A model generated the notes under the pieces. That model saw nothing but the letters and a program-made list of their open reading frames with translations. It was not told where the DNA came from and ran no database searches. A stretch of DNA of 43,949 nucleotides, from contig JAUNMU010000002.1 of assembly GCA_030531745.1 (NCBI GenBank), positions 1 through 43,949 on the forward strand. Direction: 5' to 3'. The DNA comes from Synergistes sp. GTDB lineage: Bacteria; Synergistota; Synergistia; Synergistales; Synergistaceae. Positions within the stretch are counted from its first letter, which is position 1. Every line of letters begins with the position of its first letter. Below are positions 1 to 43,949 of this stretch, piece after piece. Position numbers and translations under genes: made by a program.

Positions 1-22
1 CTCCAACGTATGGATATACGCC

Positions 23-76
23 TGATGAACAAACTAAGTTCCGCTACGCAAATCAAAGATTTGCTGCGTCACTTAT
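23..76 (+). repeat. B1 hairpin module (GATGAACAAACTAAG ... CTTA) sitting at a position that is a single T in copy R2
   Basis: Starts with the same 16-mer TGATGAACAAACTAAG as 118-133. Closing stem is TAAGT 35-39 / ACTTA 71-75. Inner stem is GCAAATC 48-54 / GATTTGC 58-64. Confidence 0.6.
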
Positions 77-117
77 CCGCCCCAGTCGTGGACTGCCTGT
101 TTAGCATCCGGCACATC

Positions 118-178
118 TGATGAACAAACTAAGCGACTCACACAAATCGGAAAATCGCCGATTTGGTTCGCTGCTTAT
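118..178 (+). repeat. B2 hairpin module (GATGAACAAACTAAG ... CTTA), second insert-like unit
   Basis: Closing stem TAAGC 130-134 / GCTTA 173-177. Inner 8-bp stem CAAATCGG 143-150 / CCGATTTG 158-165 with loop AAAATCG. A homologous unit lies at 43886-43943 on the minus strand. Confidence 0.6.
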
Positions 179-311
179 AATCAGCGGAAGCCGCTTTTGC
201 GTTTATCTGCCAAAAACAAATTAAACAGCGTTTTCTCAATTATACCATTTTAGGCCGTTATTATCCGTATATTTTTAAGCAATTCAATATATACCTGTAA
301 ATGGAAATTTT

Positions 312-2349: not shown

Positions 2350-3247
2350 TCATACGATTTGGGATGAATGGAGTGCCGCCGGAGTTGACGAAGAACTTGT
2401 CATTGATGAGATATCCGGAATAATAAGCGGTTTAGCGTACAGTCCGGTCGGCGATAGGTGTGTGTTTACTTTGCCGCGCCTTTTTGTCCTTAGGCGTTTG
2501 ATGCGCATTTGGGGAAGATACAAATGGAAAGACGGGGACGGCGCAATAAGGGTCATCGGCTCGTATCAGAGAGGCGGAGTTAAGTTTTCAATAAGCAGGG
2601 ATGATGTAAGCGAGATTTTTCAAAGAACAGATACAATGGCCAAACGCACAAGGAATTGGAATTGGGTTCGCGGTATATTTGGCAGCTGCGGGGCTATATA
2701 TCTTCCAAAGACAGGTTACTATTTAGCGGTGCGTTTGCCGATTACCGGAAGACATGTTGATCGTGTTCAGGCAATTTTGAGATCATGTGGTTTTGCTTTG
2801 GGGGTAAGAAAGAAAATATCATTAAAGGAGCTGATATTAAGAGATCAACAGGATATAGTCACGTTTCTGTCCAGAATAGGTCTTGTTAATACAGCACTGG
2901 AACTTGAAAATATGGCGATCTACCGTTCAATGCGCAATCATGCAAATAAGCTTGTAAACTGCGACACGGCGAATATTAACAAGACGTTGCAGGCTGCAAA
3001 AGAACAGATGGCCATTATCAGGCAAATTGAAGACAGCGGTATCATAGACGAGCTTTCCGAGCCGCTTGCGGAACTGGTGGCGGCAAGAAAGAAAAATCCG
3101 AGCATTACATTGAAAGAGTTAGGTCAGACTTTACCAAAGCCTGTAAGTAAAAGTACAGTTGAATACAGATGGCGTAAGCTTGAAACTATACTAAGTGACA
3201 AATTAAAGGGAGATGAAGCCAATGTACTTAGGAAAAGCAGATGTTAA
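2336..3247 (+). CDS. whiA: DNA-binding protein WhiA
   Basis: Third gene of the rapZ-yvcK-whiA trio. LAGLIDADG-like RGIFGSCGAIYLPKTGYYL segment and a C-terminal HTH-like tail (ITLKELGQTLPKPVSKSTVEYRWRKL). Confidence 0.85.
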   Translation: MRSLNHTIWDEWSAAGVDEELVIDEISGIISGLAYSPVGDRCVFTLPRLFVLRRLMRIWGRYKWKDGDGAIRVIGSYQRGGVKFSISRDDVSEIFQRTDTMAKRTRNWNWVRGIFGSCGAIYLPKTGYYLAVRLPITGRHVDRVQAILRSCGFALGVRKKISLKELILRDQQDIVTFLSRIGLVNTALELENMAIYRSMRNHANKLVNCDTANINKTLQAAKEQMAIIRQIEDSGIIDELSEPLAELVAARKKNPSITLKELGQTLPKPVSKSTVEYRWRKLETILSDKLKGDEANVLRKSRC

Positions 3248-5195
3248 TACCTATGACAAAGGTGCCGGAAGGGAGTTTCTTGTATCCAACGGGCGCGGGA
3301 GTTACGGTTTTTCAACGGTCATAGGCGCGAACTCAAGAAGAGAGCACGGGCTTCTTGTTGTAAGGCATGAGAATGAACTTGAACATTCTGTGCTTGTAAG
3401 CAAAATTGAAGAAGTGATCTATCACAGCAGTAAGAAATATCAGCTGTCAACAAACCGTTACAAGGATATTGTATATCCTGACGGTTACAGATATTTACAG
3501 GAATATCAGGGAAATCCTTTCCCAAGTATGCTCTTTGTAATTCACAGCATCCTTCTTAAAAAGTCAATATTTATGCCTCAGGGAGCAGGATGTACGATAG
3601 TGAAGTACGAGTTGCTTGCGGCACCGGAGAAGATACGTCTTGATATCCGTCCGCTCTTCGCGCACAGACATGTCAGTGTAGTGTGTGCGGAAACAGGCAA
3701 AGATAATTTTTCTGTCTCCTCCGCATCGGAAAGAACGATAGGTATAACGGGAAGAGGAATGTCAAGTGCGTGCGAAGCAACGGCGGGCAACTGGTCACTA
3801 AAGCCTCTGTGGTTTGAAAACATTGTCTATGAGCAGGATGACTGTGCCGAAACACCGGAAAGCGACAGCCTTTGGTCACCCGGTATCCTTTCGGTTGATA
3901 TGTCGGAGGGGGAGTCTGTTTATGTCATTCTCTCCGAAAAACCGTCTTCTTTTACAACAGGACAGCTTGCTGAAATGGAGGCAGAGGCTGCCAAGAGATT
4001 TGAGGATATTCTTGAAAAAGCCAACATTTCTGCACTTAACAGCGCAGAACAGGATATGATAGCATCATCGTATCATCTTGTTGATACCGGCACCGAAGAT
4101 AAATCTCCCATATACACAGGATATCCTTCGGTATCCGCCAAGGCGCGAGAAACATTTATCTCGCTTCCCGGACTTTTACTTGCGACCGGAAGAGAGGAAA
4201 CTGCGGAAAAGACGCTTTTGTATTGGTGCAATGTAGCTGAACACAATGATTGGGTCGTTCCAGGTGCCTTATTCCCCGATGGTAAATCTCAGTTCGGATA
4301 TGCGGACGATGGACTTTGGTTGGTATATGCGATTGATAAATACCTTACGCACTGCAATGATACAAAAAATAAGGAAAAATTTGCTGACTGCGCACTGCAT
4401 ATCGTAAACAAGTATCTTTCGGGCATTGAACAGCTTGATCTTGTCTGCGATGCAAATATGCTTCTGCGCGTGACAGGTGATAATTCATGCCGTTATTGGA
4501 TGGGGGAGTCCGTTGACGGAGAAGTCGTTGTTAAACGCAAAGGCTATCTCGTTGATGTGAACTCTCTTTGGTACAACGCACTCAAAGTCGCGGCCAAATA
4601 TGTGCTTGAATGCGGCAAATCGGAAGATGCGGATAAACTTGAGGCTGCGGCTGCAAAGTGTTCAAAGAGTTTTGGTGAAGTATTCCGCAGCTTTGATATG
4701 AGAGGGCTTTACGATTTTGTAGATCCAAACACATTCAAAGGTGAGTATGCTATAAGACCCAACCAGATACTTGCCGCTGCCCTTCCGTTCAGTCCATTGT
4801 CTGACGAAGATGCTCAGTCGGTCGTTCGCCTCTGCTGGAACGAACTTTACACAACGTACGGATTGCGTACGCTTGACCCGCACCACGAGAAATTCAAAGG
4901 GCGTTCGGAGGGAAGGCCGGATCAGCGCATTAAGGCACGCTACCGCGGAATGGCATGGACGTGGCTTCTCGGCCAGTTCATAACGGCATACATAAAATAT
5001 AATCCCACACGCAAGGATATTGGCTGGACGTTTATACGCCCATTCAACTCACATCTGCGCCACGGCTGCCTCGGAGGCATAGCGGAACTCTTTGACGGCA
5101 TTATGCCCTATCGCCCCAACGGAGATGTGCTCAGCGCCATATCTCTTGGAGAAATGCTGCGCGTCCTTTATGAGGACTTGGAGGAAGAGTGCTAA
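3222..5195 (+). CDS. Glycogen debranching enzyme family protein (amylo-alpha-1,6-glucosidase, GDE_N_bis + GDE_C)
   Basis: N-terminal SNGRGSYGFSTVIGANSRREHGLLV matches the bacterial/archaeal GDE N-domain, followed by a long (alpha/alpha)6-type C-domain. The ATG at 3213 abuts the SD AAAGGGAG, so ATG 3222 (9-nt spacing) is preferred. Confidence 0.82.
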   Translation: MYLGKADVNTYDKGAGREFLVSNGRGSYGFSTVIGANSRREHGLLVVRHENELEHSVLVSKIEEVIYHSSKKYQLSTNRYKDIVYPDGYRYLQEYQGNPFPSMLFVIHSILLKKSIFMPQGAGCTIVKYELLAAPEKIRLDIRPLFAHRHVSVVCAETGKDNFSVSSASERTIGITGRGMSSACEATAGNWSLKPLWFENIVYEQDDCAETPESDSLWSPGILSVDMSEGESVYVILSEKPSSFTTGQLAEMEAEAAKRFEDILEKANISALNSAEQDMIASSYHLVDTGTEDKSPIYTGYPSVSAKARETFISLPGLLLATGREETAEKTLLYWCNVAEHNDWVVPGALFPDGKSQFGYADDGLWLVYAIDKYLTHCNDTKNKEKFADCALHIVNKYLSGIEQLDLVCDANMLLRVTGDNSCRYWMGESVDGEVVVKRKGYLVDVNSLWYNALKVAAKYVLECGKSEDADKLEAAAAKCSKSFGEVFRSFDMRGLYDFVDPNTFKGEYAIRPNQILAAALPFSPLSDEDAQSVVRLCWNELYTTYGLRTLDPHHEKFKGRSEGRPDQRIKARYRGMAWTWLLGQFITAYIKYNPTRKDIGWTFIRPFNSHLRHGCLGGIAELFDGIMPYRPNGDVLSAISLGEMLRVLYEDLEEEC

Positions 5196-6327: not shown

Positions 6328-7524
6328 ATGCAGCTTAAAACATTTTCGCAGTCGGATATTGCCGGCAAAAAAGTAGTTGTAAGGGTTGACTTCAATGTTC
6401 CTCTTGCAGACGGTAAAGTCAGCGATGACACACGTATCTTGGCGCATATCCCCACGATCACCGCGTTGCTTGACGCAGGTGCCGATGTGGCGTTGATTTC
6501 ACACCTCGGCAGACCGAAGGGCGAACGCAATATGAAGTATTCGCTTGAGCCGGTTTGCGCAAGGCTTGCGGAACTGACGGGATGGAACGTGAAATTTGTG
6601 CCGGATTGCATCGGCAAAAAAGTCTCGGATGCGGTTACGGAATGGAAGAAAGGCGAAATTCTTCTTTTGGAAAATCTTCGCTTTTATTCTGAGGAAGAAA
6701 AAAACGACAAAGAATTTGCAAAAGCCCTTGCGGCTGACTTTGATGCCTTTGTGATGGATGCTTTCAGTGCGTCACACAGAGCACACGCCTCAACACGCGC
6801 AATTACCGAATTCGTGCCGTCATATTCCGGTATGCTCATTAACCGCGAAATAACCATGCTTTCAGCAGCAAGAGATAATCCGAAAAAGCCCTTTGTGCTT
6901 ATCCTTGGCGGAGCGAAAGTCTCTGACAAGATTGCCGTAGTTGAAAATATGCTTCGCAAGGTTGACACGATTCTTGTAGGCGGCGGCATGGCATTTACCT
7001 TCCTGAAGGCACTCGGTAAAGAGATAGGCAAATCTCTCTGTGAGGAACAGAAACTTGACTTTGCAGCGAAAATGCTTGAAGAAGCAAAACAATTCGGAGT
7101 CAAGATCGTGCTTCCGATAGATGTTGTTACCGCAAAAGAGTTTAAGGCTGATTCTCCGGCACACGTTACAGACGCAGATTCAATACCTGCGGATGAGATG
7201 GGGTTGGACATTGGTCCTGCAACGGCAAAACTCTTCGCGGATGAAATTGCAGCCGCTAAGACCGTTATATGGAATGGTCCCATGGGTGTTTTTGAAATGC
7301 CTTCATTTGCAAAAGGCACTGAGGAAGTTGCAAAAGCACTCGTTTCGGCGACACGCAACGGTACATTGACAGTTGTCGGTGGGGGAGACTCAGCTGCCGC
7401 AATAACACAATTCAATATGCAGGATAAAGTTTCGCATGTATCAACGGGAGGCGGGGCAAGCCTTGAGTTCTTTGAGGGCAAGTTGCTTCCGGGAATTGAA
7501 CCGTTCATATTAGGGAACCACTGA
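6328..7524 (+). CDS. pgk: Phosphoglycerate kinase
   Basis: RVDFNVP N-terminal motif and full-length PGK-like sequence. Starts 3 nt after gap. Confidence 0.97.
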   Translation: MQLKTFSQSDIAGKKVVVRVDFNVPLADGKVSDDTRILAHIPTITALLDAGADVALISHLGRPKGERNMKYSLEPVCARLAELTGWNVKFVPDCIGKKVSDAVTEWKKGEILLLENLRFYSEEEKNDKEFAKALAADFDAFVMDAFSASHRAHASTRAITEFVPSYSGMLINREITMLSAARDNPKKPFVLILGGAKVSDKIAVVENMLRKVDTILVGGGMAFTFLKALGKEIGKSLCEEQKLDFAAKMLEEAKQFGVKIVLPIDVVTAKEFKADSPAHVTDADSIPADEMGLDIGPATAKLFADEIAAAKTVIWNGPMGVFEMPSFAKGTEEVAKALVSATRNGTLTVVGGGDSAAAITQFNMQDKVSHVSTGGGASLEFFEGKLLPGIEPFILGNH

Positions 7525-7530
7525 TTATAT

Positions 7531-7685
7531 GCACCATCCGCGTCACAGTCAGACCGCGCCTGTGGCTCCAACGTATTGATATACGCCTCCGCCCCAGTCG
7601 CGGTCTGACTGTTTAGCGGCTGGCACATCTAATCAGCGGAAGCCGCTACCGTGTTTATCTGCCCCAAACGCATTAGTCAGCGTTC
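7531..7685 (+). repeat. Composite intergenic repeat, copy R2: about 90-nt imperfect palindrome (7534-7623) followed by the D module (7631-7685)
   Basis: 14-bp perfect stem 7545-7558 / 7599-7612 (ACAGTCAGACCGCG / CGCGGTCTGACTGT), extended imperfectly on both sides. The 24-nt loop 7567-7590 equals module A of R1. Confidence 0.85.
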
Positions 7686-7711
7686 CTTAGATTAACCTGA
7701 ATAAATATCTT

Positions 7712-7742
7712 AGGGCGGAATAATTTCCGCCCTTATATTTTA
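7712..7742 (+). terminator. Rho-independent terminator after pgk
   Basis: AGGGCGGAA / TTCCGCCCT 9-bp stem with TAAT loop, followed by TATATTTTA. Confidence 0.75.
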
Positions 7743-29297: not shown

Positions 29298-29405
29298 TAT
29301 CCAAGGAAAACGTCAGATGATCTCACTTCTGCCGTCTACAATAAAGCCACGACAACATTATCATTTAACAAGAGTGCGTATATATAACCGATAGAAAAAT
29401 ACATT

Positions 29406-29448
29406 AAGGCTAAAATGCGATCGCATCGCATTTTAGCCTTAATTTTTT
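29406..29448 (+). terminator. Rho-independent terminator after rluB
   Basis: Perfect 16-bp stem AAGGCTAAAATGCGAT / ATCGCATTTTAGCCTT with a 3-nt loop, then AATTTTTT. Confidence 0.85.
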
Positions 29449-33728: not shown

Positions 33729-33756
33729 TCTCAATGATTATTGCTCCCTTAATAAA

Positions 33757-33812
33757 ACCGCCGTCTTCCTGCGAGCGGCGTAATCGCCGCACAGGAAGAC
33801 GGCGGTTTTTTT
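33757..33812 (+). terminator. Rho-independent terminator of the five-gene cassette
   Basis: 15-bp stem ACCGCCGTCTTCCTG / CAGGAAGACGGCGGT followed by TTTTTTT. Confidence 0.85.
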
Positions 33813-34036: not shown

Positions 34037-35620
34037 GTGGGGAAATATTTTAATCCGAGTAATCAGAGCTTTACAGATGATTCTACAGCTCCGATATACG
34101 TTGATAAAACGGGGCTGCTTGAACATCTGAATAGATGCATACGCACACCGAACAGGTGCGTAGCCGTCAGCCACGCAAGACGCTTCGGCAAATCGCAGGC
34201 CGCGGGAATGTTAGACGCATATTACAGCAAAGGCTGTAATTCGCACGAACTCTTTTCAAGGTTTGAGATCGCAAAAACGGCGGATTTTGAAAAATACCTG
34301 AATAAATATAATGTCATACACATTGATATGGCGCAAATGTGCGATAACTGCAACGGAGATTTCATGGAAAAACTCTTCAAAACACTTACCGCTGAATTTG
34401 CCGCATCGGAACTCGGTGACAAACTTGACTGTTCCAAACCTGTTGAACTTGTGATAAGTGACATATACACGCTGACCGATTTACCCTTTGTCATAATCAT
34501 AGATGAATGGGACTGCGTAGTGCGTAATTACGCAAGTGATCAAAGACTTGTACATGAGTATATGCAGTTTCTGCACGCTCTCTTCAAAAGTGAATTGGCA
34601 AAACAGTTTCTTGCCCTCGGCTATATAACAGGCATACTCCCGATAAAGAAATTTGATGACGAATCAACACTGAATAATTTCAGAGAATATACGATGATAA
34701 ATTCAAGAGGGCTGACAAAGTACTTCGGTTTCACCGAAAACGAAGTGGAAGAACTGTGCATAAAATATAACGCGGATATTGTAGGTGTGAAAGAATGGTA
34801 CGATGGCTATGACATAAATGGCATATCAATGTATAATCCGAACTCGGTTTGTCAGGCTATGGAGTTTCATGAACTCACATCTTATTGGACGAATACTTCC
34901 TCTTTCAGCACCATAAACAGATTTGTTACGCTGAACTTTGAAGGGCTGAAAGATGACGTTATAAATATGCTCAAGGGTGAGAGAGTTGCTGTAAATGTCC
35001 GCACGTTTAGGAACGATTTGTCCGAGATAAACTCAAAGGACGATGCTTTGACTGCACTCATACATTTGGGTTATCTTGCATACGATACTGAGATGGAAGA
35101 GGCATACATACCGAACTTTGAAGTTGCCCTTGCATATCATTCCGCACTGCCGTCAAGCGGCTGGAAGGACGTTGCCGACTCAATATCGCGTTGTACCGAT
35201 CTGTTGAATGCAACGATAAGAAAAGACGAAGAAAAAGTTGCGGAGCTGATAGATAAGGCTCACACTGCGTACACTTCGCATATCAAATACAATGATGAAA
35301 ATTCTCTGTCATGTGTTGTGTCAATGGCGTACTTCACAGCTCCCGCGTATTATACGATAGTCCGTGAATTTGCATCCGGCAGAGGCTTTGCGGATCTTGC
35401 TTTCATACCGAAGAAAATGTCATCAAACAGACCGCCTATGATAATAGAACTTAAATGGAACAAGTCTGCCGACAGCGCGATAAAACAAGTTAAAGAAAAA
35501 AGGTATCACGGAGCACTCTCCGGATTTTGTAATGAAATTCTCCTTGTAGGTATAAACTACGACAAAGACGACAAGGATAAAAAACATACGTGCAAAATAG
35601 AAAGAGTGAGGAACGTGTAA
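34037..35620 (+). CDS. AAA-ATPase-like (PF09820-type) protein with C-terminal PD-(D/E)XK nuclease-like domain
   Basis: N-terminus FTDDSTAPIYVDKTGLLEHL...RFGKSQAAGMLDAYY and IIDEWD are typical of the predicted AAA-ATPase family. C-terminal GRGFADLAFIP...IIELKWN is a PD-(D/E)XK-like motif. GTG start with AGAGGGAGG SD. Confidence 0.75.
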   Translation: MGKYFNPSNQSFTDDSTAPIYVDKTGLLEHLNRCIRTPNRCVAVSHARRFGKSQAAGMLDAYYSKGCNSHELFSRFEIAKTADFEKYLNKYNVIHIDMAQMCDNCNGDFMEKLFKTLTAEFAASELGDKLDCSKPVELVISDIYTLTDLPFVIIIDEWDCVVRNYASDQRLVHEYMQFLHALFKSELAKQFLALGYITGILPIKKFDDESTLNNFREYTMINSRGLTKYFGFTENEVEELCIKYNADIVGVKEWYDGYDINGISMYNPNSVCQAMEFHELTSYWTNTSSFSTINRFVTLNFEGLKDDVINMLKGERVAVNVRTFRNDLSEINSKDDALTALIHLGYLAYDTEMEEAYIPNFEVALAYHSALPSSGWKDVADSISRCTDLLNATIRKDEEKVAELIDKAHTAYTSHIKYNDENSLSCVVSMAYFTAPAYYTIVREFASGRGFADLAFIPKKMSSNRPPMIIELKWNKSADSAIKQVKEKRYHGALSGFCNEILLVGINYDKDDKDKKHTCKIERVRNV

Positions 35621-41664: not shown

Positions 41665-43109
41665 GATAGATATGCTCCTTTTTCTTTTATCTTTAGCGGA
41701 ATTTCAACGGTGAAAGTGCTGCCTTTGCCCAATTCGCTTTCTGCCCTAATAGTTCCGTTATGTGCTTCAACTATCGCTTTTACTATCGCAAGACCTATGC
41801 CGATACCGCCGCTTGTCCTTGTGCGCGAAAGATCCGTCCTGTAAAAACGTTCAAAGACGTATGGGAGATCCTTAGGAGCAATGCCTATGCCCGTATCCTT
41901 AACCTTTATCGTAAAGCTGTTGCCTGTATTTGCGGCGGTGAATGTGACACTGCCCCCCTCATCTGTGTAACGCAGAGCATTTGATAAAAGGTTTTCCACG
42001 ACCTGACGAATCTTTGCTCCGTCAACCTCAGCAAATATCTTATCTTCAATACTGCGTTTAAGCAATACGCCTTTGGCTGCATACATGGGATCAAACGCCA
42101 TAGCTGCTCTCTCCGCGGTTTGCGATATATCTATATTTTCAAATGTTATGCAGTGCGCCGCGCTCTCTATGGACGTAAGCTTTTCCACTTCGCGTATGAG
42201 AGAAGAAAGCCTGTCAATTTCACCTACCGTAAGACGTATTCTTTCAGGTGTCGGCTGCCACACCCCATCTTCAATCGCCTCAAGATGAGATTTGATTATT
42301 GTTACTGGATTGCGCAGCTCATGCGCTATGTCACTTAACAGGCGTCTGCGCAGGTTTTCCTGTTCTTTAAGGGATTCTCCGAGCCTGTCAACGCTGTCAA
42401 CCAATACGGCAAGCTCTGTTATATCCGTATCGGTCTTTTCGCTCTTTTCATATTCGCCTCTGCTTATCTGACGAGCCATATTTGCCGTGTTCAAAACGGG
42501 GCGGCTTATGCGATGTGCCATAAAGACTGCGATCAACACGGCAACGGCAAGCATTGCCGCGACTGCGTAATACATTATTTTATTAAATTTTGTCAGAAAT
42601 CGTCCTTCGGGGCTGAACGAGAAAGGAAGAATGCTGAAATGTATTTCTCCGATTCTGATCCCTTCTACATACAGTTCACGTCTTTCAATCATAATATCCC
42701 TTGCAGGTACGGTATCTCCATGTGTATGAAGGCTGTGCGAACCTGTATTCGGCCTTCTGCCACTAAGCTCCAAACTGCTGCTGCGGCGGCTCGTACTCTC
42801 CATACGATTGTACATTCTGACGCTTCTTCCGTCGTTGTCAAAAAGCTCAACCTTAAACATCGGCCATCTGATAAAGTCGTTGTTTTCAGGGAAAAGTCTG
42901 CTCTCTCTCCAAGTGCCATACTCAAGATATACACGCACAAAGTACTCCGCGATCTCAATCTCGTTTTCCTGAAGCCTTTCACTCGCAAAACGTCTGAACT
43001 GCATATCAAGCAGTTTTGAGATCGCCGCCGGTATCACGATCATACAGACAATTACGATCACCATATACTGGAAAATGAGCTGTGTGCGGAGAGAGCGCTT
43101 GACCTTCAT
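41661..43109 (-). CDS. Sensor histidine kinase (TM - periplasmic loop - TM - HAMP - HisKA - HATPase_c)
   Basis: H-box SDIAHELRNP, N-box NLLSNALRYT, G-boxes DTGIGI and GGIGIGLAIV. Confidence 0.92.
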   Translation of the reverse strand: MKVKRSLRTQLIFQYMVIVIVCMIVIPAAISKLLDMQFRRFASERLQENEIEIAEYFVRVYLEYGTWRESRLFPENNDFIRWPMFKVELFDNDGRSVRMYNRMESTSRRSSSLELSGRRPNTGSHSLHTHGDTVPARDIMIERRELYVEGIRIGEIHFSILPFSFSPEGRFLTKFNKIMYYAVAAMLAVAVLIAVFMAHRISRPVLNTANMARQISRGEYEKSEKTDTDITELAVLVDSVDRLGESLKEQENLRRRLLSDIAHELRNPVTIIKSHLEAIEDGVWQPTPERIRLTVGEIDRLSSLIREVEKLTSIESAAHCITFENIDISQTAERAAMAFDPMYAAKGVLLKRSIEDKIFAEVDGAKIRQVVENLLSNALRYTDEGGSVTFTAANTGNSFTIKVKDTGIGIAPKDLPYVFERFYRTDLSRTRTSGGIGIGLAIVKAIVEAHNGTIRAESELGKGSTFTVEIPLKIKEKGAYLS

Positions 43110-43798
43110 TTTGTGCCGTCCGAAATTTTGTAGCCAAAACCGTGAACAGTTCTTATATAACCGTTTTCGTGCTGTGGGTCGCTCAGTTTCTTGCGTATAT
43201 TTTTGATATAGCTGTCTATTGATCGTTCAAAACCGTCATATTCATATCCAAGTGCGTATGTTATAAGATCGTCTCGGCTCCATGTCTTTTCGGGCCGTGA
43301 TGCCAATTTTGACAAAATCATAAATTCATTGCGGGTCAAAGAGATCTCTTCACCGTTTTTTAATACCGTGAGGTTATCTGTGTCAATGGCAAGCGAATCG
43401 CCCACGTTTATTACATTGTTTTTCAGTGAATTTTGTGTCGGTTTGTTCCTGCGCAGATTTGCCCTGATTCTTGCCATCATAACACGCGGCGAAAACGGCT
43501 TTACAATGTAATCATCGGCTCCGGCATCAAGCCCCGCTATAATGTCATCTTCGCCGCTCTTTGCCGTGACCATTAAGATAGGTGTTGCGGAATTTTTGCG
43601 TATTTCTCGGCACACGTCAACTCCGGACATCTCGGGAAGCATCAGATCAAGCAAAACAAGGTCATATTTGTCCTGATAAAATTTTGCAAGCCCCTCTGTA
43701 CCGGAAGCCGCAATATCCGCACTATGACCATCGCGTTCAATATACGCTCGTTCTACCTCTGCTATGGCTCTTTCGTCTTCAACAATAAGTATCTTCAT
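43106..43798 (-). CDS. OmpR-family response regulator
   Basis: Receiver domain (ILIVEDE, DLVLLDLMLP, K at ...IVKPF) and winged-helix output (RTVHGFGYK). Overlaps the kinase start (ATGA). Confidence 0.94.
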   Translation of the reverse strand: MKILIVEDERAIAEVERAYIERDGHSADIAASGTEGLAKFYQDKYDLVLLDLMLPEMSGVDVCREIRKNSATPILMVTAKSGEDDIIAGLDAGADDYIVKPFSPRVMMARIRANLRRNKPTQNSLKNNVINVGDSLAIDTDNLTVLKNGEEISLTRNEFMILSKLASRPEKTWSRDDLITYALGYEYDGFERSIDSYIKNIRKKLSDPQHENGYIRTVHGFGYKISDGTK

Positions 43799-43829: not shown

Positions 43830-43949
43830 GACACACTGATTAATTCGTTTTTTGCAAATAAACGCAAAAGCTGCTTCCGCTGATTATAAGCAGAGAACCG
43901 ATTTGCCGATTTTGCAAATCGTGTGACTCGCTTAGTTTGTTCACCGGAT
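43830..43949 (-). repeat. Composite intergenic repeat, copy R5 (minus orientation; B module 43886-43943, D module 43830-43885; cut by window end)
   Basis: The reverse complement aligns base-for-base with 121-235 except for the swapped hairpin stem and a few substitutions. The D module ends 31 nt upstream of the response-regulator ATG. Confidence 0.85.

Follow-up and report, generated by a model that had tools for sequence, protein, structure and literature searches.

A short hairpin module seamlessly nested in a MITE of a Synergistaceae genome and in other repeats of Synergistota and Bacillota

The origin and spread of tiny hairpin repeats such as REP, BOX and ERIC are poorly understood beyond a few Proteobacteria. 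ERIC/IRU elements are palindromic intergenic repeats, some copies of which are lengthened by a block inserted at one constant position inside the repeat; these insertions are not known to form a separate family common to unrelated frames or phyla. The BOX elements of Streptococcus consist of two modules that pair with each other, boxA and boxC, and a self-folding module, boxB, that can be absent or repeated and that in S. suis, where boxE/boxF frames exist, is found within two frame types (PMC3049150). REP sequences are defined by the tetranucleotide GTAG or GTGG located 0 to 2 nt 5′ of the hairpin foot and by a GC-rich basal stem (PMC6006769). The IS200/IS605 and REP/RAYT systems recognise their DNA by a hairpin together with a conserved 5′ flank (PMC3333891, PMC6006769), and the E. 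coli RAYT cleaves between C and T within the site TGCC^TGAT (PMC3333891; here and below, ^ marks a junction or a point of cleavage). IS5 duplicates a YTAR target (PMC5009759).

The DNA analysed here (the window) is the 43,949-nt contig JAUNMU010000002.1 of the Synergistes sp. assembly GCA_030531745.1. Its genes are ordinary chromosomal ones (rapZ, the glycogen debranching enzyme gene, gap, pgk, tpiA and others), and the best relatives of its PGK, 79% identical, are from Synergistaceae (Cloacibacillus, Ca. Caccocola). As this PGK is alone in its cluster, the genus is one that is otherwise unsampled. An initial annotation had described a repeat with segments A, C and D, and had proposed that two hairpin units, B, occupy in one copy (R1) positions that are a single T in another copy (R2). 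This reading agreed with the letters of the window: after removal of 24–76 (53 nt) and 119–178 (60 nt), R1 aligned without gaps to R2 at 7566–7698 over 133 nt, 108 of them identical. The 15-mer GATGAACAAACTAAG is present exactly at 24–38 and 119–133; its minus-strand copy at 43931–43945 has one mismatch. When up to 3 mismatches were allowed, 5 matches were found in the window versus 1.48 expected, a number (five or more) reached in 0 of 100 shuffles. The D segment is present in 4 copies versus 0.19 expected. The features are listed below.

1–23, plus strand: R1 A segment, tip hairpin (CGTAT..ATACG) of the long hairpin of the MITE
24–76, plus strand: B1, divergent 53-nt B hairpin nested in R1; T23 flanks it and T76 is its last base
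77–118, plus strand: R1 C segment, 3′ arm of the long hairpin of the MITE, ending in ..TTTAGCATCCGGCACATCT
119–178, plus strand: B2, canonical 60-nt B hairpin module
179–235, plus strand: R1 D segment, with an internal TIR-like (T)AATCAGCGG, a small hairpin, GTTTATCTGCCAAAAAC and the right TIR TAAACAGCGTTTTC
7510–7513, plus strand: left TTAG of the R2 TSD, a single TTAG in the ortholog L043
7514–7686, plus strand: R2, 173-nt MITE, complete but lacking B, with the end of pgk on one side and the pgk terminator on the other
7687–7690, plus strand: right TTAG of the R2 TSD, a single TTAG in the ortholog L043
33878–33936, plus strand: R3, D segment with the right TIR TAATCAGCGTGTCC and, upstream of it, what is left of a degenerate frame; without B
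43830–43885, minus strand: R5 D segment, 35 nt upstream of the start codon of a response-regulator-like gene
43886–43945, minus strand: R5 B unit, its head reading GGTGAAC; the contig ends 4 nt beyond

The R1 A segment is identical to R2 7566–7588 at 22 of 23 nt (95.7%), and the left arm and left TIR of R1 are missing, cut off by the start of the contig. The C segment is 86% identical to R2 7588–7630, and its tail, TTTAGC..GCACRTCT, is kept in loci L035, L037, L039, L041 and L042 (loci fetched for comparison carry L numbers); B2 plus this tail is 88.9% identical to L041. The hairpins claimed for the two R1 units, closed by TAAGY and RCTTA, were confirmed by DNA folding (24–76, −8.5 kcal/mol, z −3.2; 119–178, −11.7 kcal/mol, z −4.4), B1 having the exact 15-nt head and a TAAGT and ACTTA closure. 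The R5 unit folds more strongly (−17.7 kcal/mol, z −6.3). The suggestion that R3 and R5 both carry B fused to D held for R5, where B lies beside D, and failed for R3, which has no match to the covariance model described below and whose junction, TTTAGC..TATAATCAGCG, resembles that of the B-less R2. The GGTGAAC of the R5 head results from the loss of 9 nt, CACATCTGA in R1, at the C/B junction (ATCCGG^TGAAC). The B head thus shows another indel, distinct from the first, although so close to the end of the contig (4 nt) it could be an assembly effect. The gene downstream of R5 (43106–43798) we take to encode a response-regulator-like protein from its sequence. All three B units of the 44-kb window are intergenic.

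The initial annotation overlooked that the frame itself is an element of the TIR/TSD type. The A-C-D frame (R1, R2, R3 and R5) is a non-autonomous MITE of about 173 bp, with TIRs that start with GGAAC, a long internal hairpin and a TTAG TSD. Two relatives, L043 and L044, share the gene order GDE-gap-pgk-tpiA; their pgk-tpiA spacer consists of the terminator only, with neither frame nor B in it. The window minus 7514–7690 is colinear with L043 through ..TTTTAG^ATTA.., and therefore 7514–7686 (173 nt, including D) is an insertion in a duplicated TTAG, the TSD being read from one copy and one relative with 79% PGK identity. The R2 TIRs are GGAACCACTGATTA and, as the reverse complement, GGAACGCTGACTA; those of related frames are 21 nt long. 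The internal hairpin of R2 has 49-nt arms (DNA fold −37.1 kcal/mol, z −7.2). Since D lies inside the R2 insertion, it is not a separate unit: it is the stretch of the MITE that runs from an internal TIR copy, TAATCAGCGG, to the true right TIR, and by analogy the D segment of R1 would also lie within the MITE. D was considered as a promoter or terminator and rejected, as a weak 5-bp stem followed by Ts is found in R1 alone and there is no promoter-like site on the gene strand. In its TIRs, 4-bp TTAG duplication, length, strong fold and intergenic location the frame is like classical TIR/TSD MITEs, and TTAG fits the YTAR of IS5-type MITEs, a resemblance in target only. B is unlike such MITEs in having no TIR and a duplication of at most 1 nt.

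The R2 insertion also affected the gene next to it, and nested repeats can thus rewrite gene ends. The last codon of pgk was hit by the MITE; the protein ends in ..EPFILGNH (398 aa), compared with ..EPYVLD (396 aa) in the relative L043, and the original pgk tail, TTAGATTA, persists downstream of the MITE (window 7500–7530 and 7680–7700). The arms of the MITE hairpin (window 7518–7639; L037, L041, L042, L035) are highly divergent between copies, even within one metagenome, with pairing kept.

Nested repeats break assemblies as well, and both ends of this contig lie inside them. The ends, 1–246 and 43830–43949, stop in inverted repeat copies (I1, 117 nt, 85% complementary between the 43830 side and 115–231), and the host-repeat copies broken there, R1 and R5, both carry B. 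Since both ends fall in repeat copies, an element present many times over is the probable cause of the breaks in the assembly, and the genome would hold many more copies of it.

B was searched for beyond the window by scanning one genome per species with the pattern GATGAACAAACTAAG-N25-50-CTTAT. The scan returned 33 loci, of which 17 are hairpin-type units and the remainder are chance matches, mostly intragenic; a metagenome scan added 8 further units, and two MAGs hold 6 and 5 exact-pattern copies. B is a discrete, strand-specific module of 52–61 nt with defined ends. It consists of the head GATGAACAAAC, the hairpin TAAGY-GA..CAC-[variable stem-loop]-GG..CT-RCTTA and a T, its ends being constant (GATGAACAAACTAAG, 15 nt, at the 5′ side and CTTAT at the 3′ side). 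Alignment of 22 distinct units gave a consensus of 16 pairs. In these units the fraction of cells that pair is 96.4%, compared with 83.9% in shuffles and 31–46% in slid controls. Compensatory changes were found in 8 of the 16 pairs, with a covariation score of 0.320 versus 0.110, reached by 0 of 500 shuffles. The closing pair covaries between C-G and T-A and the terminal stem varies in nearly every lineage, while hardly any variation is seen in the 15-nt unpaired head or in the nucleotides of the loops (GA, CAC, GG and CT). A covariance model built from the 22 units scored true units at 60–88 bits and chance matches with only the head and CTTAT at 20–35 bits. In the window, 119–178 scored 84.7 bits, 43886–43945 (minus strand) 78 bits and 24–76 42.7 bits; standing above the chance matches, B1 is therefore a divergent member of the family.

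Searches with Rfam 15 gave no match in the window (nothing credible in 1–360 at E up to 10), and the sole hit among 16 related loci was a T-box that is unrelated. There were no matches to B in viral contigs, phage records or plasmid records, and a phage or plasmid origin was rejected on these grounds. Literature searches returned no papers for the 15-mer and only unrelated primer sequences for the terminus of the bin.8 frame described below. B is thus undescribed in the databases (Rfam, plasmid, phage) and the literature searched. Two further candidates were discarded. A small ORF through B (MNKLS.., with the ATG in the head) conflicts with the unit lengths of 52, 53, 58, 59, 60 and 61 nt, which do not keep to multiples of 3, with a TGA in frame in L014a and with the lack of a ribosome-binding site ahead of it. 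A helix of the head with GTTTATC of D, GTTTCATC of the Tissierella frame or TTTGTCAT of the bin.8 frame was rejected because duplex energies were no better than those of shuffled flanks in most of the 22 units.

Outside the A-B-C-B-D frame, to which B units would have had to be confined if they were not mobile, the module was found in a minimum of five further contexts, spread over two phyla (Synergistota and Bacillota). Its ends, GATGAAC...CTTAT, are constant across contexts and the flanks are unrelated. The contexts and their hosts are given below.

Window-like frames: ERZ1673695/Ga0192242 Synergistaceae
Short GC-rich closing helices: two other Synergistaceae MAGs, with tandem units in L014
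Palindromic frame TGTCATYCTGAGCG..: Bacillota MAG bin.8 and three metagenomes
Promoter-proximal frame: a Tissierella MAG
Single sites: T. pigra and A. multivorans

The finding is therefore more general than could be seen from the window alone. Within any one host frame B occupies a single fixed site, and none was seen at a plain, non-repeat location among the model and pattern matches examined.

Several individual loci deserve description. The Tissierella frame (L003, L007, L011, L024, L031) starts with (T)ATAACGAGG, which is like a −10 box, and ends with ..GCTTAAA near the start of the next gene; in L007 and L031 a ribosome-binding site directly follows it. The genes that follow it (MreB, PNPase, ABC ATPases, a holin-like protein) are unrelated, and the frame also has a short form in which about 60 internal nt are absent. 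This frame may be a mobile promoter or leader cassette. In A. multivorans (L013, 3981–4321) a lone B lies on the strand opposite to both neighbour genes; on its own strand the hairpin is followed by UUAGUUUGUU, and it could be a terminator for a HAD hydrolase gene. The right terminus of the bin.8-type frame in L021 (4471–4485, minus strand), GATGACAAAACTAAA, matches GATGAACAAACTAAG at 12 of 15 positions, a likeness that may hint at the origin of the B head. In L041, a filled copy (3194–3400, plus strand) and an empty copy (3617–3800, minus strand) of the same frame lie inverted, about 220 nt apart, in one intergenic region, an arrangement that recalls a BIME or REPIN.

Comparison of copies with and without the module showed that the filled site reads T-[B]-T and the empty site a single T, B being gained or lost as one piece; these comparisons are between copies of a frame rather than between orthologous loci of one species. 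The initial annotation had recognized that R2, as the sole B-less copy, would point to a local deletion. It is not the sole one, as R3 is B-less too and filled and empty pairs exist in three further frames. On both points, the presence of B in other contexts and the B-less copies besides R2, the outcome favours mobility. Window-type frames are filled in L042, L039, L041, L037 and L035 (GCACKTCT^GATGAAC..GCTTAT^AAACGCCGATTT) and empty in L041 (3617–3800, minus strand) and L035 (12925–13050), which read GCACKTCT^AAACGCCGATTT. Within this frame type, GCACGTCT^B^AAACGCC corresponds to GCACKTCT^AAACGCC, with L039 (filled) and the end of L035 (empty) sharing all of the 62 nt available upstream (62/62). 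In the Tissierella locus L031 an empty copy, AATCACCT^CGTTGCAGCC, is directly followed by a filled one, AATCACCT^B^CGTTGCAGC, so that the junctions AATCACCT^CGTTGC and AATCACCT^B^CGTTGC are adjacent. The bin.8-type frame is empty as TGTCATY^CTGARCG and filled as TGTCAT-TA-GATGAAC..CTTAT^CTGARCG. In L012, the 3′ end of 5S rRNA is partly duplicated and a B-like unit interrupts the duplicate (CTACTCT-G-B-CCCACGAA), with the intact CTACTCT^CCCACGAA 100 nt away; the 5S assignment is from a truncated match of 16.6 bits plus reading of the sequence. The duplicated block of this locus (6406–6678) is 80 nt long and comprises a terminator hairpin and the 5S rRNA 3′ end, the upstream copy holding the B-like unit. 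The head of that unit is GGTGGGAAAACTAAG, and its GTGGG complements the flanking CCCAC.

The proposal that B inserts at or next to a T with at most 1 nt of duplication was upheld as regards presence or absence at a T and an ambiguity of at most 1 nt; the direction of the change, insertion or excision, could be assigned at one of the two sites. The B1 site is empty in R2 and in 7 related frames of alignment A3 (GCCT^CCGC or GGYT^CCGG). It is filled in R1 alone, 1 of 9 related frames, and therefore B1 is a derived insertion. The B2 site is filled in 7 cases and empty in 3–4, and its junction, GCACRTCT^GATGAAC, is kept across species. As filled copies prevail there and share this junction between species, the direction at B2 is not polarised, and R2 could equally represent an excision or a lineage that was never filled.

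The same state of the B2 site is what would be expected if R2 had simply lost both B units by precise deletion and nothing were mobile. We regard this explanation as very improbable. The flanking homology amounts to 1 nt, and slippage across the hairpin would leave the 11-nt unpaired head behind; since the head is lost as well and the same junction recurs, slippage is a poor explanation of the empty copies. Moreover, identical empty junctions are found in four unrelated frames, and the empty state is ancestral at the B1 site.

B behaves as a discrete and probably mobile module. The reading that we favour, with slightly more belief than doubt, has two nested layers: the MITE frame and, separate from it, the B module moved in trans by a hairpin-recognising single-strand enzyme. 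According to this proposal, B would be non-autonomous and would be moved on one DNA strand by a nuclease/ligase that recognises hairpins, for which an enzyme of the HUH/Y1 type, as in REP-RAYT and IS200/IS605, would be the best candidate. Cleavage and rejoining by such an enzyme would leave no target duplication, and its preferred substrate would be DNA exposed by the folding of palindromic repeats. B adjoins a helix junction of the host repeat. In R1, B1 is the derived insertion, and B2 occupies the usual site of the family, vacant in R2.

Several features bear on the type of enzyme. The junctions of the window, CGCC^TGATG and CATC^TGATG, can be compared with the RAYT site, and many B units follow C-T. 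The only flank common to B units at the 5′ side is YT (ATCT, GCCT, GTCT, ACCT, CATT, CTCT). The lack of a TIR and the ambiguity of at most 1 nt (T) would fit an IS200/IS605 derivative. The hairpin with its conserved 5′ flank, the seamless junctions and the C-T 5′ of many units favour HUH/Y1-type movement. A search by tblastn with three Y1 queries found no Y1 transposase in the window and loci L001–L042, about 365–370 kb, and Pfam scans of the genes neighbouring B, which are housekeeping genes, detected no Y1/HUH transposase; in these loci B was linked to no transposase of any kind. The lack of a Y1 gene in these loci, the YT-only target, the absence of the REP hallmarks, the single hairpin and the single site per frame count against such movement.

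The initial annotation had likened B to a REP/RAYT or IS200/IS605-derived element, and this classification is unsupported: there is no GTAG-type tag, no GC-rich basal stem and only one hairpin. B is like REP, BIME and REPIN sequences in being a short, multi-copy, strand-specific extragenic hairpin with a conserved 5′ tag, in a mosaic with other motifs. It is unlike REP in that the foot TAAG is preceded by AAAC, within the head GATGAACAAAC, instead of a GTAG or GTGG tag, and in that the foot (TAAGY and RCTTA) is AT-rich, with 1 G-C in the first 4 pairs. The units of the window also differ from REPINs, as they are not inverted doublets and the window and loci L001–L042 yielded no RAYT gene. With the ends of IS200/IS605 elements B shares a hairpin plus 5′ flank as a recognition unit and seamless, strand-dependent junctions without target duplication; it differs from them in having one hairpin versus two different subterminal hairpins (LE and RE), and its YT flank is much weaker than their 4–5-nt targets. 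A frame with B resembles ERIC/IRU, a palindromic repeat with an optional block at a fixed internal site. By virtue of the boxB module, BOX elements appear to be the closest analogue. Compared by layout, B and its frame are like BOX in that the terminal modules pair and an optional internal module folds independently, with B-plus and B-minus forms in four frame types. B is unlike boxB in that it is common to two phyla, has a 15-nt invariant unpaired head, and is usually present in 0–1 copy at a T junction, with no long tandem arrays.

The analogy with BOX suggests another interpretation, namely that B is a passive module, internal to composite repeats as boxB is and with no machinery of its own, whose old B-plus and B-minus alleles spread with the frame and are reshuffled by gene conversion or recombination. 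One ancient capture of B by each frame, after which both forms spread and underwent gene conversion, would also agree with its single fixed position there. The same interpretation agrees with the lack of B at non-repeat sites and of a transposase in the loci examined, with the tandem units of L014, and with the behaviour of BOX elements, in which boxB of S. suis is found in two frame types (PMC3049150). We nevertheless consider it unlikely, as the entry of B with exactly the same ends would still be needed for at least four unrelated frames, the 5S fragment and the B1 site, the last of these being filled in just 1 of 9 related frames, and both forms would have to persist in several lineages.

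It is also conceivable that B is mainly a structured RNA, or a single-stranded protein-binding motif, under selection, that the host repeats are RNA scaffolds and that the indels reflect modular RNA evolution. The strong covariation and the invariant unpaired nucleotides (the 15-nt head, GA, CAC, GG and CT) speak for it, as does an identity of about 83% between B units of the two phyla. G-U pairs are tolerated on one strand: on the top strand there are 26 G-T versus 2 A-C pairs, of which 20 of the 26 come from one invariant pair, the counts being otherwise 6 versus 2. The same excess is in keeping with the strand specificity of B in the two-layer reading. Furthermore, all five filled copies of the Tissierella MAG (5/5) lie 52–146 nt upstream of the next gene and in its direction, and the 4 D copies of the window are all oriented with the next gene. 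Against this, B as a whole is oriented with the next gene in 14 cases and opposite to it in 9, the genes downstream are unrelated (MreB, PNPase, ABC ATPases, rapZ, tpiA), B-less copies exist at equivalent positions, no Rfam family matches, and pairing between head and flank is no better than in shuffles. As a main explanation we judge this improbable. A role as an RNA or binding motif is compatible with mobility of B.

Returning to the two-layer reading, it can be extended, tentatively and with more doubt than belief, to the proposal that an undescribed system of Synergistota and Bacillota inserts and excises DNA seamlessly as single strands and has B as its substrate; the system would be REP/RAYT-like and outside Proteobacteria, would recognise the 15-nt tail and the conserved-loop hairpin, and would home to helix junctions. 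If this were true, B would be a mobile element living mainly inside other mobile elements. B is unusual among small modular interspersed repeats in its conservation across two phyla, its invariant 15-nt head and its seamless nesting in other repeats. With sharp bounds, filled and empty sites in several frames, a presence in two phyla and a searchable covariance model, it offers a concrete handle on the origin and spread of such repeats.

Orthologous repeat sites were looked for, and no synteny was found between the window and the fetched loci. The fold of the host frame was also compared between strands. The bottom-strand fold was better by 5–14 kcal/mol in 6 of 6 frames, with 3–5 versus 0–1 G-U pairs, and the strand preferred by the frame is the opposite of that preferred by B. 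Strong hairpins of the intrinsic-terminator type are found in the window at 7712–7733, 29398–29448 and 33751–33812, the first of which is the conserved pgk terminator, found in L043 too. The gene at 34037–35620, downstream of R3, is predicted to encode an AAA-ATPase with a C-terminal PD-(D/E)XK nuclease domain (PF09820, PF08011).
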